A program made the position numbers and the translations under genes. From a virus, in the IMG/VR virus record IMGVR_UViG_3300031951_000022, positions 1 through 64,000 of that record: 64,000 nt of DNA; one strand, 5' to 3'. Positions within the stretch are counted from its first letter, which is position 1. Each line of letters opens with the position of its first letter. Of the stretch, positions 12,323 through 63,500 are shown piece by piece. The notes beneath the pieces are model-generated. The model worked only from the letters and a program-made list of their open reading frames with translations. It did not search any database and was not told where the DNA came from.

Positions 12323-12877
12323 TTACTCACTACAACGACATTGGTATTTATTACAATATGAACATTTTGGCCCAGGTTCCGCAAAACCCCAAGCATTAGC
12401 ATATCCATCAAAGCTTTCTTTGCCGGTATCAATACAAACCAATTTTTGGGTATTGTTGCGGTCTACTAAACCAATATTATAATAGTGGCAATCCCAAAAT
12501 TTCAAACCAGATTTTTCATAAATCTCATTAACTAAGTTTTGTATCTTAGCCAAGCTTAATTTTTTAGGCTGAATATCCTCGGCCACTTCTGTAACATATC
12601 CCCAATCACTAATACAGTCATAGTCTGGATCGTCCCTATCAAAAAACTTTAGTTTGCATACAGGGCTATAAATTTTAGGGGCTAAATCAAATTTGCTCAA
12701 TTCTTTTTGTACAGATCGGGAGTAGTTGGCTTTTCTTTTTGAACGGAATTCTTTAAAACCCAAAAAAGAGTGTCCTTTAATTGGATAAAATTGACAATAT
12801 CCGCCCTCATCAAACCAACTACTACAGTCAATCTGGTGTTCTGTATACTGGTTGTTCTGTTTCTTTGACATAGCCAC
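12323..12877 (-). CDS. minimal protein-kinase-like fold protein
   Basis: DEGGY, GFKEF, LAPKIY, DCHYYNIG, CIDTG; paralogue at 55930. Confidence 0.55.
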   Translation of the reverse strand: MAMSKKQNNQYTEHQIDCSSWFDEGGYCQFYPIKGHSFLGFKEFRSKRKANYSRSVQKELSKFDLAPKIYSPVCKLKFFDRDDPDYDCISDWGYVTEVAEDIQPKKLSLAKIQNLVNEIYEKSGLKFWDCHYYNIGLVDRNNTQKLVCIDTGKESFDGYANAWGFAEPGPKCSYCNKYQCRCSE

Positions 12878-18778: not shown

Positions 18779-18947
18779 ACTATTTTTGTTTTTTACTTTT
18801 TTTAATTTTATTCTCTATCTTATCCATTCTTTTAGATAAAATCTTTAAGTATTTCATTTCTTCTTCATGATTTTTATCGTTTTGCTTTTGTGTCTTTTTA
18901 AATAGTTTTTTCCACAAACTCATAAATATTTACTCCTTAATGTTAAG

Positions 18948-19301
18948 TGGAGGCGTTCGGTACTGCCCCGAAGTGCCGCGATATGTCAAAATATATTATC
19001 TACAAGTTTATTTTATTCGTAAGTTTTAAGAAAGACTAGAAAATAAACAACATTCATCTTTCCGTACCAACTAATCTCAGGCTAGAACCCGTTGGCTATT
19101 CTAGCAGCCGAAGGATTTTACGACAATCTTTTGAACGCTACCTTCATCGCTTTCTAAGATTGTTGCTGTTATTTAATTAAGCAGCAAGAGCTAACTGAGT
19201 TGTGCCAGTTAAAGCATTTGATAGATTTTTAAAGTGGCCCTTCTATCAACCACTACTTGCAAATATATTAATCTTTATCCGGTCGATACTATTTCGCCCC
19301 C
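18948..19301 (-). ncRNA. ssrA: tmRNA, one-piece; tag (A)GTTQLALAA*
   Basis: 5' GGGGGCGAAATAGTATCGAC pairs with 3' CGCCTCC-A (G3-U wobble); TTAACT then GGC ACA ACT CAG TTA GCT CTT GCT GCT TAA at 19206-19177. Confidence 0.92.
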
Positions 19302-53831: not shown

Positions 53832-53865
53832 ACAAACCATCGTAACTCTAACGTCAGCCTCCGAA

Positions 53866-53939
53866 TAGGGCGTGTAGGAGTCGAACCTACCTTTTGAATA
53901 CCTTATAAGAGTATGTGCAACTACCGGCTGCAACGCCCC
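53866..53939 (-). tRNA. tRNA-Ile(UAU), atypical D-arm
   Basis: ATACT-CT-TAT-AA-GGTAT; T-arm GTAGG-TTCGACT-CCTAC; promoter at 53951-53979. Confidence 0.75.
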
Positions 53940-53991
53940 ATGTTTCTTAGATCATACTCTCTTTATCGGCTGTTGTCAACTACTTCTTTAG

Positions 53992-54078
53992 CGGAATCTG
54001 AGGGATTCGAACCCCCGGAGGATTTTAACCCTCGGCGGTTTAGTAAACCGCTGCCTTAAACCACTCGGCCAAGATTCC
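53992..54078 (-). tRNA. tRNA-Ser(ACU)
   Basis: GCGGT-TT-ACT-AA-ACCGC, long variable arm, G73. Confidence 0.85.
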
Positions 54079-58158: not shown

Positions 58159-58530
58159 TCAAGAAAGAAAACCCTCACAACCCAAGTCCCTCATTTCACG
58201 AAGAAGAAAAAGAGCCTTTTCAGGAGTATTCAGAGTGATGCTCTGCTTGGCATTTGGATTACCAGCAACATGCCTATCGCCCTGAAATCCACCAGTAAAA
58301 ACATCGGTCCAATCCTTGCTCTCTTTCAATCCCCAGCCAGTAGCGGCACGAATAGCCTTAATGCAAGGGATTCGGTTGTCAAGAGTCATACCACCAGTAA
58401 TGGTAACGGTCTTGTTCTGGTTCACACCAAGAGCAACCTCAAAAGCGGTTACGATCCGCTCATAGATTTCCAGATTGCAGTTCGTCGCAAGATTCATAGC
58501 CTCACGAACACTCAGTTCCAACTTAATCAT
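58159..58530 (-). CDS. ribosomal protein bL12 C-terminal-domain-like protein
   Basis: NRIPCIKAIRAATGWGLKESKDWTD...EKALFLLREMRDLG; likely start MIKLELSV. Confidence 0.65.
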   Translation of the reverse strand: MIKLELSVREAMNLATNCNLEIYERIVTAFEVALGVNQNKTVTITGGMTLDNRIPCIKAIRAATGWGLKESKDWTDVFTGGFQGDRHVAGNPNAKQSITLNTPEKALFLLREMRDLGCEGFLS

Positions 58531-59005
58531 ATATTCCAAAACTTTCTGTATATTTAGGTTCGATCTCGTAAATACCGTCAAAATTTCCATTTCGTTCTTC
58601 TAGGACATATACCTGTTTACCACCAGTAATCAAGGTATCATATTCACTATTGTCCCAAATAAACTCATTGTTATCGCTTTCTCGTCGCCAGTGTGGGTCA
58701 CGAAGTGGATTATAATACAGCTTTTCCAGATTGTCAACAGGCAAAATCGGATAAAAACTTTTTCTCAACATAAATTCTTCACATCTTACCCATCCACTCA
58801 CATCATGCACACCAGCCTCAAATACCTGTTTAGCCTTATTGGGTCTATTCCACAGTTTACAACCCCGCATTTCTAACTGATACTCAGCAGGGTCATAATA
58901 GTACACATCGACAGTTTTACCGCCTTGCTTCACTTTCACTTGCCAAAACTTATAGTTTGGCCCATTACTAAGGTGAAATCTAACTTCTGCATGAAGATTT
59001 TTCAT
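58523..59005 (-). CDS. hypothetical phage protein
   Basis: VRFHL..G.NY..WQVK; YYNP.RDPHW. Confidence 0.6.
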   Translation of the reverse strand: MKNLHAEVRFHLSNGPNYKFWQVKVKQGGKTVDVYYYDPAEYQLEMRGCKLWNRPNKAKQVFEAGVHDVSGWVRCEEFMLRKSFYPILPVDNLEKLYYNPLRDPHWRRESDNNEFIWDNSEYDTLITGGKQVYVLEERNGNFDGIYEIEPKYTESFGIYD

Positions 59006-59070: not shown

Positions 59071-59535
59071 ATGTCAATACCAGAAACGAAAGTCTGTGCA
59101 AAATGCAAGATAGAAAAATCGGCTAATGAATATAGTATAGTTAAAACAAAAAGAGGTAAATATAATCCTCATTTAAGTAGCCGTTGTAAATTATGCAGAG
59201 CGGAGGACCAAACCAAACACCGCAAACCATACGATTCAGATTATGCTCTATCTTGGAAGTCTAAAAATCCGGATAAAGTTAAACAATACCAAAAAGATAT
59301 CTATCAAAAAAGAAAGTTACGTTGGGAAAACTTTATGAAAACACAAAAATGTAGTAGATGCGGCATATCTGATTATCGAGTCTTACAATGGCATCATATT
59401 GATCCATCAACTAAAACTATGACAATAGGCGCCCAAGCAAGACAAGGAAAATGGAATCAAATCATGGAAGAAGTCAAAAAATGTATTTGCGTCTGTGCTA
59501 ATTGTCATTTTATTCTTCATTCTGAAGAAAATTAA
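59071..59535 (+). CDS. HNH endonuclease
   Basis: CSRCG..VLQWHHIDP..K...E..KC..VCANCH..LH. Confidence 0.85.
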   Translation: MSIPETKVCAKCKIEKSANEYSIVKTKRGKYNPHLSSRCKLCRAEDQTKHRKPYDSDYALSWKSKNPDKVKQYQKDIYQKRKLRWENFMKTQKCSRCGISDYRVLQWHHIDPSTKTMTIGAQARQGKWNQIMEEVKKCICVCANCHFILHSEEN

Positions 59536-59760
59536 TTATTTCCTACTTTTAGGATTATCAACAGCCTCTGCTAACTTTTCCCACAGATCCTCTACCAGTT
59601 GTTGATTACAGTCAACAGCTCTAAAAGGAACGTAATAAATAGCGTCCAAAAACTCATTGACAAGTTGTTTTAGTTCTTGGAGTTCAATACTTTCAGTTTT
59701 CATCTTTCTCTCCTTTGTCACCATTATACCATTCTTTATCGGTAAGTCAAGTACCACCAC

Positions 59761-60352
59761 ACTGATAGTTTTACGAAGAATACGTGGTACTGTATTGTCT
59801 TCAACCTCAAGGTTTTACCTTATCTAAGGAAACTATCAGCAGAGTTGTAACCAGCGGAACTTTTTACGCCCCAGTTCCTATAACCCACCAATACCCCGAT
59901 ATTATGAACCCTTGGAGCAAGGTAAACACTGGTGGAAACCGCCCACGGAAACCTCCCTGTAACCGGATGAACTGCTAGCATCATGTTCCGGTTAGTCTGG
60001 CTCTTGGTGACGGTTACTGGTTGTATTGTATATGGCAACGTTTTTAGCCTATCACAGAGGATGGGAAGGGCGAACGTTTTTAATCCTAACCTATTATCTA
60101 GGAACCATAATAATCATCGTGGTGAGGATGCCATCCCCCATAGATTGGTACTTCTATCTAACGTATAACTCCGTTAGCAACCCCACGCTGCATAACAGCC
60201 GTAGGTTTATCGAAATAGGTTATCCCAATCTAGTCCCGCCGCATGGACCCACGAAAGTTTGTCATAGTACGCTAGGTTTAGTGCTGCTTCTCTATCCTAG
60301 CACGGCTTAGTATGATGTTATCTCTGGCACTTAACCGCTATGTTTGTATTGT
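59761..60352 (-). ncRNA. candidate large structured non-coding RNA (~590 nt)
   Basis: Dedicated promoter at 60359-60386, no credible ORF, elevated GC, many nested stems. Confidence 0.6.
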
Positions 60353-60427
60353 GTCACCAATATAGCATACGTTCTTGGTTTGTCAAGCGTACAACACCGA
60401 ATGAATCGGATTTTCGTTGGTGACTAG

Positions 60428-60529
60428 GGGCGAAGGGTGGAATCGAACCACCTCATGGGCATTTGCTTGCCTACTCCACTGGTCAGTGTCTCGGAACTTC
60501 CCACACGCTACCATTACGCTACATTCGCC
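60428..60529 (-). ncRNA. tRNA-like RNA with expanded anticodon arm
   Basis: Acceptor GGCGAA(T)G/CTTCGCC, D-arm GCGT-AATGGTA-GCGT, T-arm GGTGG-TTCGATT-CCACC; promoter at 60545-60572. Confidence 0.6.
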
Positions 60530-60589
60530 ATGTCTTACTCTATCATTCTACACTCTATTATCGGCTTGTCAAGAGGGTTTCTTGAATTT

Positions 60590-63500
60590 TTAGTTGGCAG
60601 ACGGAGACAAAACCTTTTCGGCCGTTTCCACAATATAATTCATCATCACCTTTTGCAAAACCTTTTCTGCCAAAAAAATAGCATTAGCCTTATCCATATT
60701 ACCCACACCTTGCATTTGAGCAATACTTACCACAGTTCCAGTAAACTCCATAATTTCTGCCAGAACCATATCGCTTTTAGTTGGTACAGCAATCATGATT
60801 TTCTCCTCTATTAGGATTCTACACTATGAATTAATGCTTGTCAAGGGTACGCAAATCTCGCTGACTAAATCCACCCAAGCCGAATCCGTAGGATTAGGAG
60901 AGACTAGCAATCCGCTCTAGCCAAATGTCTTTACCATATTTTTCGCTAGCTTTCCTAGTCGCGTCAGTTTCGCTAAACGATACAACATAACCCACAAAGC
61001 GATTATGCTGAAAAACACGCCAAGTGTAACCGGCATAGCAGTTCATGGTTTTCATACCCTGATTCTACAGTATTATCGGCATTTGTCAATAGGAGTCTTT
61101 AATTTGTCGTAAGTTGTTGTGGAGCAAAGAGTTACGACGAATCCGGCCCGCCGCCCTAGTCCTAAGTGCTGCCGTAGCAACGACTTAGGAGAAGGGTTTT
61201 TGGTTTTAGTGTACTAGTGTTCAGAGCATAGCCGCAACTGCATTGCGGAAGAGTCGGTTGGTGAACACACACCTACGCACGTTCTTAGTACGCTCTGCAT
61301 AGAAGTTGCGAATACTACCGTCAACCATTTCACACGTTACAAGATGCTTAGTACGCTTGAAATTAGGATCATTAACACGGTAATTACTACGAGCATTAAG
61401 CCTCTTAATCTGGTAGTCATCCATAGTATAAACAGGCTCAATAACCCTAGCAAGAATACGCTCAGGCTCACCATGATAAGGCTGCTCATATTCAAAGTTA
61501 TAAACTTCTCCAACCTTAGCATTGGTAAGCGAACCATGTACGCCACGAACAATATTATACGCCAGAGCAAGCAAAGCAATGACACCAACCACACCAGCAC
61601 CAATCATCACAATCGTTTCATTCGACATAAAAACCCTTTCTTTAGAAGACAAACCCTCAATGACTCAAGTCTATACCATATATCGGCAGTTGTCAAGCGT
61701 GAACTTTACCAAAATTCTCAACCCAAAATTCTTGCATTTCATACAGGTTGACGCCCGTATCATGCCAAGAAATTCGGTCAGGAGTTTCGATACCAATCTT
61801 TCCATGCTTGCAAACCTCACGAATTTCATTCTTGAAAGTGTCGTAAGAATCACACTGGGCCGCAAATCTATTTAGACCTTCATCATTTGATATCCACAAA
61901 CAGACATTCCATGTGGCATAATTAGCATAACCGTTGTAAGTGCCATCAGGACTCATGATTAACCCTTTCGTTAGGTGACACCCTAAGCATACCATATAGA
62001 TCGGCTAATGCAAGGGCTAATCTTGAAAAAATTTTTTTAGACGTAAATCCTTGTGGCATAAGTACTTACGTCGAGCTGGGCGGCGCGGCCTCGCCCTAAG
62101 TCCTTTAGTGGCAAGGCTTTACGCTCAATTTCACTCAAAGTCTACGAAAATTACTTGATTGTAACCCCGCGGCTTAATAGTGAGACTGTCACCATAATCG
62201 TAAGTATCACTCTTAACGCCAGTCATACCAGCCGCAAGCTTAGCCTTTCGCACAATATTACGTTGTGATGCCTCAGAGTTAATAGCAAACTCATAACGGT
62301 TAGCCCAAGAGTAATTAGCTTCACCACCAAAAGTATCGGTCTGCGTAACGGTAACCTTCATCATCTTATTATTCCTATTAGAGAAAAAAGTATCGATCCA
62401 ATTTTTAATGTCTTTACTCATTCACCTCCATAATAGTCTTCATACATTGGGGTGTCATCCCCGTAATATCCATAGTCTTCATCTGTACCCCAACCAACAG
62501 ACTCCATAGCCGAATCGTGGTCGCCATCCATGCTATCATCATACTCATCTGCGTCATCCATAGCCCTATCTGTCCACCAATTTTCATCCTCATGACCATC
62601 ATACAGGTACTCGGCAAAAAGAATATCGCTAGGATCATGCTCAACAATCATATCATCATCCTCGTAAGAGTTATCGGGATCGAAAAGGGGGTCAGGGTGA
62701 CTCATGACTTTCTCCTATTTAAGAAACATACCATACTTCGCCGTTCTCGTCAACCATCTCTTGCGGCTCTGGATACATTTCTTCCCAAAGCCCCGTCACT
62801 TCCGCATAGTCGAAAGGATCGCAGTTCGGTTCGTCAATCGGCTCGACCATACCCTCGTCAACCATTCCGTTCAGGATCGCGTTGATTTCATCAAAATCGT
62901 TCAGCATGATCTTTCTCCCTTGTGATGCTTTCATTCTACAGTATTTATCGACCAATGCAAGCGAAATCTTTGGAAAAAAGAAAATATAATTCCATGCCAA
63001 ATGAAGAAAATTCTTTCGGCACAGCATTTGCGTTGAAACTCGCCCTAAGTGCTTACGCCACAACAACTTACGTCAAGCCGGGCGGGCCGCGTTCGCCCTA
63101 AGTCCTTATGCTGCAAGCACTTAGGTTAAGAATTAACTTCATTTCTTTCTTGCAGGAAAAACCAAATTAGACAATAATGATACTATCTCTTCATTAACAA
63201 AGCCAATAATAAATGCCACAAATACCCACACCCAGTTTATATCGTCTAACATCTGTGTAAGCCTTTAGTTTAGAAGTACAGCAAAAATCAGACCGAAAGC
63301 AAAAGCCATGCCGAATATAATAAATTCCTTACGCATATTACCTTTTCTTCCTAATAGGATAAACCAGATCAGCCACCACCCACGAACTACCCACACCAAT
63401 TATAAAACCAAGGCCCATCCATAGCCATTCTACATTTAGATTATCTAACATCCATGTATTCCTTTGTTTTAGAGCTTATCCCCCATATCTAAAATAGCCA

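Follow-up and report, generated by a model that had tools for sequence, protein, structure and literature searches.

Our analysis indicates that a stretch of about 590 nt on the minus strand of an uncultured lake phage is probably an operon-like string of small, independently folding RNAs, organized as five hairpin-closed modules. Three of these modules, D1, D2, and D3, are members of new phage-restricted RNA families, and in each of them the fold is conserved through compensatory changes. The other two, MA and MC, appear from sequence comparison to be accessory modules that were inserted at spacer sites. Over evolution, each module has behaved as a unit of its own. The analyzed DNA, which we call the window, is the opening 64 kb of a complete IMG/VR virus record of 157,712 bp. 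Read along the minus strand, the features of the locus are as follows.

60359..60386, minus strand: sigma-70-type promoter TTGACA-16-TATATT with a TG-extended -10 box, 11 of 12 consensus matches
near 60352, minus strand: expected transcript start, from the position of the promoter
60342..60352, minus strand: 5' leader, with the initial AAUACAA-type spacer; relatives have these words between the -10 box and D1 and between modules
60263..60342, minus strand: accessory module MA, aligned with relative G001; centroid fold, z = -1.5; rare among relatives
60115..60256, minus strand: core domain D1, a four-way junction; alignment A2, 36 distinct sequences
60030..60111, minus strand: accessory module MC, between D1 and D2; single-sequence fold
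60022..60029, minus strand: spacer ACAAUACA before D2, its last base (60022) being the first base of D2
59848..60022, minus strand: core domain D2, a four-way junction; alignment A3, 33 distinct sequences
59751..59840, minus strand: conserved 3' module D3; fold and nine distinct relatives, read by eye
59723..59750, minus strand: next promoter, TTGACT-16-TATAAT, near-consensus, serving a 55-codon gene; 3' limit of the RNA locus

The minus strand carries nearly all genes of the window, and the locus is found in a tRNA-rich part of the phage, a setting that has been reported for ROOL and GOLLD. Specifically, nine of the ten tRNA genes in the window fall within 53.4-57.6 kb (ARAGORN/Rfam), and the window also encodes a tmRNA, a DNA ligase, an RNA ligase, and an rIIA-like protein of 881 amino acids whose cultured relatives are only distant. 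The tmRNA is full length (18945-19301, minus strand; Rfam, 75.3 bits), and two of the tRNAs called by ARAGORN on the minus strand have unusual anticodons, namely, a tRNA-Ile with UAU (53865-53940) and a tRNA-Ser with ACU (53991-54078).

That annotation, made from the sequence by eye, had described a promoter pointing into GC-elevated sequence that has no credible open reading frame and belongs to no family it could name. All of this was borne out. The promoter has the spacing and extended -10 box listed above, and GC content is 0.44-0.47 within the region compared to 0.33-0.41 in the flanks. From about 60352 to the next promoter, no open frame exists on either strand, and all six frames are broken even when any single stop codon is reassigned. 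A coding reading of ORF 59820-60038, or of others, finds no conserved open frame among relatives, in one of which (G003) whole sub-blocks are missing and among which D2 differs in length by numbers that are not multiples of three. No Rfam family matches the locus, whether the window was searched at gathering scores or positions 59400-60800 at E values of up to 10, and two divergent relatives returned only a partial match to a flanking tRNA look-alike along with chance-level matches. Likewise, a blastn search of the locus against 50,697 phage records gave zero matches. Within the string we found no further promoter in this window, and the same promoter and leader cassette stands directly upstream of D1 or D3 in relatives. 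A search between 60900 and 59300 found no intrinsic terminator that would set the 3' end of the RNA in this phage. The annotation had also called the entire region highly structured. By folding energy, this did not hold for the whole 592-nt stretch, which folds no better than its shuffles (z = -1.21), and the case for structure therefore rests on covariation rather than on folding energy. It did hold for D1 alone, which folds into the same helices from the single sequence (z = -2.83; 0 of 200 shuffles).

Evidence for conservation comes from related phages. The rIIA-like protein led us to related contigs, of which three large ones were searched using the locus as query. One of these, G001 (223 kb), can be aligned with most of the locus (79-84% identity) and has an additional insert of 139 nt. 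A minimal relative, G003 (180 kb), keeps only the blocks 60253-60118 and 60026-59849, which are arranged as promoter, D1, 10-nt spacer, D2, and U run; its promoter is shared with the tRNA look-alike that neighbors the string in this phage. When IMG/VR was scanned by exact word, with one conserved word for each of the D1 and D2 blocks, we recovered 51 and 56 stretches, nearly all of them from lake-phage contigs of up to 244 kb. A scan of 185,579 prokaryote genomes found the conserved D1 word in only two contigs of metagenome-assembled genomes (MAGs), and the comparison with the viral counts suggests that the modules are restricted to phages. Both of these contigs, L111 and L112 (JBJTKU010000149.1 and RFNS01000242.1), are short and had been assigned to Candidatus Planktophila and to an alphaproteobacterium. 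Probably they are phage sequences that ended up in MAG bins, or possibly they hint at a host. In total, D1 and D2 are carried by about 80 related IMG/VR phage contigs and D3 by about 20. Even within the clade D1 is not universal: G004 and G007 have it, but the complete 197-kb relative G002 does not.

In the fold of D1, the closing helix opens onto a 4-bp hairpin, a long arm, and a 3' hairpin, the last of which adjoins the 3' strand of the closing helix. Along the long arm there is an internal loop, then a 5-bp helix, and then a junction from which a variable hairpin and a 6-bp hairpin emerge. The loop of the 6-bp hairpin (60170-60165) is complementary to the internal loop (60223-60218), which makes D1 a pseudoknot, and this loop-loop contact covaries (CG in 24 sequences and GC in 12; AU in 32 and GC in 4). 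In the model, the pairing would form within one molecule, since only the 5-bp helix lies between the internal loop and the 6-bp hairpin, which is able to bend back along that helix.

Covariation in homologues, which had been named as the check on the first-pass proposal, was found in D1, D2, and D3. In alignment A2, with its 36 D1 copies, 97.9% of cells are paired and 19 pairs have changed on both sides. None of 500 shuffles did as well, although here and for D2 such counts overstate independence because many of the sequences are closely related; sliding the partner by one to three columns lowered the paired fraction to 37-46%. Because the A2 copies had been fished with a word from the 3' hairpin of D1, we repeated the test on D1 copies reached through D2. 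This set yielded 28 double-change pairs, which involve every helix including the closing helix and the 3' hairpin, in an alignment that leans towards the model to which it was fitted. Very diverged copies of D1 (27-30 bits) retain all of the helices with different letters. Furthermore, when only one side of a pair changes, the usual outcome is a G-U pair on the minus-strand RNA, where the opposite strand would have A-C; the annotation had already noticed mismatches that resolve in this manner. Some departures from the common form were also seen. A few D1 copies carry T-loop-like hairpins, and a CCA follows D1 in part of the copies only. In L093, a 69-nt mini D1 (12364-12432, minus strand) stands in tandem with a full D1, and in it the whole long arm has given way to a small hairpin, whereas closing helix, short hairpin, and 3' hairpin are preserved.

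D2 is likewise a four-way junction, in which the closing helix leads to a second helix or arm with a subdomain inserted in it, to a variable arm, and to a hairpin that has a conserved 11-nt loop and abuts the 3' strand of the closing helix. Across the 33 copies of alignment A3, 99.5% of cells are paired and seven pairs show double changes. On four of five measures none of 500 shuffles was as good, and on the fifth, which counts further pair types, 13 of 500 were. Model R2 detects D2 in 45 of 50 sources, that is, the window, 47 D1-bearing loci, and the two MAG contigs. As a side observation, the conserved loop (59872-59861, minus strand) contains GGGCGUAAA, presumably the same nine letters as are found in the 560-570 region of 16S rRNA, a coincidence that may be due to chance.

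The hairpin of the inserted subdomain ends in a loop (59980-59973) that in the window is the palindrome UGCUAGCA. Most relatives have a perfect palindrome of 6-10 nt at this apex, and it differs between lineages and sits on unrelated stems, with at least five six-letter cores represented (GCUAGC, UCAUGA, UGAUCA, UGCGCA, and UCCGGA); in a few copies the palindrome has only four letters or is lacking. These classes were judged by eye. Given that a six-nucleotide palindrome is expected by chance at about 1 in 64 per center, a count of palindromes over the whole sequence is uninformative, and the argument rests on the fixed position and on the repeated replacement. The middle four letters of the apical palindrome cannot pair within one hairpin. 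In the ornate RNAs GOLLD and OLE, the latter of which is bacterial, loops that switch between palindromes (L21a and L9.3, respectively) have been read as pairing between two chains and support kissing (10.1101/2024.12.08.627333). By analogy, D2 probably pairs with a second copy of itself through the apical loop, forming a symmetric kissing dimer.

At the 3' end of the string, D3 has a closing helix of 10 bp (59839-30 with 59771-62) around two inner hairpins. An H-type pseudoknot is formed between the 3' tail (59757-51) and the last hairpin, whose loop (59790-84) is its pairing partner, and this pairing is kept in nine distinct relatives through four sequence versions. One inner hairpin also covaries. 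Both of these statements come from reading the sequences by eye, as a column-wise count of D3 pairs was dropped, indels having put the aligned 3' tails out of register. A related form of D3 comes after D2 in many other contigs.

What joins the modules is a short spacer. The word CAAUACA, whose threefold recurrence the annotation had pointed out, occurs at 60351-45, 60028-22, and 59797-91, which are 3 of the 18 copies in the 64-kb window, and three of the five hairpin-closed modules have an AAUACAA-type spacer upstream. In relatives, the AAUACAA word also serves as the transcript leader after the -10 box. It does not flank the true tRNAs of this phage, and it matches no known RNase site that we could name. 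A second word that had been seen twice, AAAAACGUU, has a different explanation, since its two copies are the two strands of one MC helix. As judged by eye and from predicted folds, MC would be closed by UAUGG/CCAUA with its two AACGUU words pairing with each other, and MA would form a three-way junction closed by CAUAG/CUAUG. Among relatives anchored on D1, MC was found only in G001 and in L089/L092, and an MC-like module lies upstream of D2 in L138.

Comparison of the interval between D1 and D2 across relatives provides natural examples of empty and filled sites. In 19 loci, the interval consists only of a 10-12-nt spacer that ends in AAUACAA. In most of the remaining loci, it holds one or two unrelated inserts of 60-220 nt that start and end with their own closing helix, and the spacer word flanks most of these on both sides. 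Some of the inserts resemble tRNAs and have a T arm, and the interval of L079 also holds a second copy of D1. Tandem D1 occurs in L136, L079, L093, and L077, while D1 is present without D2 in L067 and L099. In L127, D2 stands behind a different module and is closely followed by what by eye is an apparent tRNA. L117 has D3 by itself, preceded by a promoter of its own and by the same leader. When we looked for covarying pairings between D1 and D2, none were found, and the only matches were of low information, being rich in G and U or invariant. One candidate, in which the D1 3' strand would pair with CGUGG in D2, was rejected, as D2 does not follow when D1 changes.

An argument can be made that the locus is instead one large ornate RNA. 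Here the whole 600 nt, or at least D1 and D2, would be a single molecule, with spacers as flexible linkers and accessory modules as decorations. D2 does follow D1 in the same order in 44 of the 47 D1-bearing loci that were searched, D1 is upstream in nearly all D2-anchored loci, and the window has one promoter upstream of the string and none inside it. A U run after D2 in many relatives, including the minimal ones, is also in keeping with this, and D1 plus D2 behind one promoter would fit a two-domain RNA equally. Moreover, GOLLD has a conserved part and a variable part, its 5' half, with a linker that may carry tRNAs (10.1101/2024.12.08.627333). Yet every module closes on itself right at the spacers, no covarying helix connects the domains, and D1 without D2, D2 without D1, tandem D1, and D3 behind its own promoter all occur. 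Of the stems listed in the first-pass annotation, those at 59761-71/59830-40, 59849-54/60017-22, 59856-61/59873-78, 59885-93/59927-35, 59960-67/59987-94, and 60158-63/60172-77 correspond to helices that are kept in relatives, and that at 60271-76/60296-301 forms in the predicted single-sequence fold of MA. The sole long-range stem that tied two modules together, 60088-95/60214-21 between D1 and MC, uses nucleotides that are paired elsewhere in the covariation-supported fold of D1 and is impossible in relatives without MC, which speaks against an integrated fold. Thus, of the multi-domain RNA that had been proposed, the promoter-driven structured noncoding locus stands, but the single 590-nt fold is not supported, given modules that are inserted, deleted, duplicated, and separately promoted. 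We regard a single molecule as unlikely, if by no means far-fetched.

Two further explanations were weighed, and we consider both very improbable. The locus could be a cis-acting leader, such as a riboswitch, attenuator, or thermosensor, that controls the 55-codon gene (59703-59536) which lies downstream on the same strand with no terminator in between. However, that gene has its own near-consensus promoter (59750-59723), and what comes after the modules in relatives varies among several genes unrelated to one another, a further promoter, a run of U, and what looks like a tRNA; together these argue against a leader of the next gene. Three separate conserved folds also far exceed what a leader needs. 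Alternatively, the locus could consist of decayed tRNA genes, or of a DNA-level element such as a recombination or replication site that has no function as RNA. The tRNA-rich region, the four-arm cloverleaf topology shared by D1 and D2, and the recognizable T arm of some inserted modules in relatives are consistent with decay, and the duplication of the spacer at filled sites resembles a target-site or recombination scar. Nevertheless, compensatory changes in every helix, including the pseudoknot, reflect selection on pairing that decay would not preserve, and the G-U pairs that arise from one-sided changes on the minus-strand RNA would be A-C on the other strand. In addition, a tRNA covariance model matches neither D1 nor D2, nor the 69-nt mini form.

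If the locus is a string of small RNAs, it may work as follows. The string would be transcribed early from the host-type promoter at 60386-60359 on the minus strand, and cleavage of the transcript at the AAUACAA spacers, or close to them, may release stable small RNAs, as happens with tRNA operons and the rnaC/rnaD transcripts of phage T4. Processing at these sites is a guess by analogy, and one that we hold to be more doubtful than probable, although when set only against a single two-domain RNA it has roughly an even chance. D2 would act as a dimer through its apical loop. Early in infection, the products could serve as decoys or scaffolds that bind protein or RNA, rather than as regulators of the neighboring gene; this role is also a guess, for which we would claim some chance but well short of an even one. 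A more elaborate scheme, which strikes us as quite unlikely, is that D1 and D2 build an RNA-only assembly of higher order, ring- or cage-like and comparable to those of ROOL and GOLLD, from small exchangeable cassettes. In such an assembly, the palindromic loop of D2 would join two chains, the loop contact of D1 would act between chains as in the pRNA of phage phi29, and accessory modules and tRNA look-alikes would be swappable cargo or adaptors.

The closest analogues of the string that we recognize are rnaC/rnaD of phage T4 and the GOLLD and ROOL RNAs, none of which is a homologue. In T4, rnaC and rnaD (species 1 and 2, 139 and 119 nt) are cut out of tRNA precursor transcripts. Their genes, like this locus, specify small structured RNAs and sit next to tRNA genes of the phage that run on the same strand. 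The two RNAs share the size class of D1 and D2, and rnaC ends in a T-arm-like hairpin adjoining the closing helix, which is a likeness to both domains. We know of no spacer-delimited, reshuffled array and no palindromic loop in T4. Homology was rejected after a search of T4 68000-74000 with model R1, filters off, in which the best score of 5.9 bits did not fall on rnaC or rnaD. GOLLD and ROOL are encoded by phages or prophages, often near tRNA islands, and have elaborate folds with pseudoknots that form homo-oligomers via kissing loops (10.1101/2024.12.08.627333). The present locus resembles them in being phage encoded and in lying near tRNA genes, and the D2 apex shows palindrome switching of the kind described for GOLLD. 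The locus differs in that neither Rfam model matches, even at E values of up to 10, and in that its units are small (90-175 nt), self-closing, and shuffled as separate cassettes.

Other comparisons reach less far. With tRNA operons, the string shares several compact RNAs in a row behind one promoter with short spacers, as well as the four-way junctions of D1 and D2 with a hairpin adjoining the 3' strand of the closing helix, a similarity of topology rather than of descent. Strings in relatives hold or directly precede a tRNA look-alike, and one of them has what seems to be a true tRNA in such a place. Unlike tRNAs, D1 and D2 have no anticodon loop, and most copies lack the consensus of the D and T loops; the true tRNAs of this phage, in turn, lack the AAUACAA spacer and encode no CCA. 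Neither the tRNA model (RF00005) nor ARAGORN matched D1 or D2 in the window, and the model matched neither the mini D1 of L093 nor a T-loop-like D1 in L123. Derivation from tRNA, to which the topology and the few T-loop-like copies would lend themselves, was therefore rejected on the failure of the tRNA model and is kept as an analogy only. The system of Y RNA or YrlA was rejected because the genome has no Ro gene: a search of the whole phage record for TROVE (PF05731) found none while control genomes responded, and Rfam Y RNA gave no match. Finally, phi29 pRNA has two interlocking loops and the HIV-1 dimerization initiation site has a palindrome in its apical loop. D1 similarly pairs a bulged internal loop with the loop of a downstream hairpin, and D2 shows a palindrome of 6-8 nt at its apex. 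There is no relation in sequence or family, and phi29 pRNA and every other Rfam family remained unmatched at E values of up to 10.

The functions of structured RNAs that phages encode beside their tRNA genes have been lacking for some fifty years in the case of T4 rnaC/rnaD and for more than ten in the case of GOLLD and ROOL. With this locus, three RNA families that are new and well supported join them, from lake phages that are abundant and uncultured. Their form is one not described for those RNAs, consisting of short self-closing cassettes with a fixed spacer that are inserted, duplicated, or dropped like the genes of an operon. Sites that are naturally empty or filled reveal which modules are core and which are optional. 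Should the modules act as decoys or scaffolds toward host factors, they would represent a new layer of phage-host interplay.

Several observations concern the surroundings of the string. About 1.2 kb downstream of it, an ORF of 143 amino acids (58159-58590, minus strand) weakly resembles ribosomal protein L7/L12 in its C-terminal domain, with an E value of 4e-5 that just misses the Pfam cut-off. On the other side, outside the 590 nt, lies the tRNA look-alike (60429-60528, minus strand) with its own promoter (60572-60545). It has acceptor, D, and T arms, and about 40 nt with two small hairpins take the place of the 7-nt anticodon loop; it scores 32.5 bits with the Rfam tRNA model and is not called by ARAGORN. 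Homologues of this look-alike are found near the RNA string in L059, L070, and L073, and in L093 a sequence similar to its 5' end comes after D2. A promoter cassette of about 55 bp (60531-60586, minus strand) is nearly identical (91-96%) in distant relatives and repeated within genomes. It occurs at several places in G001 and G003 and heads different cassettes in each phage, which recalls the mobile promoter cassettes of T4-type phages.
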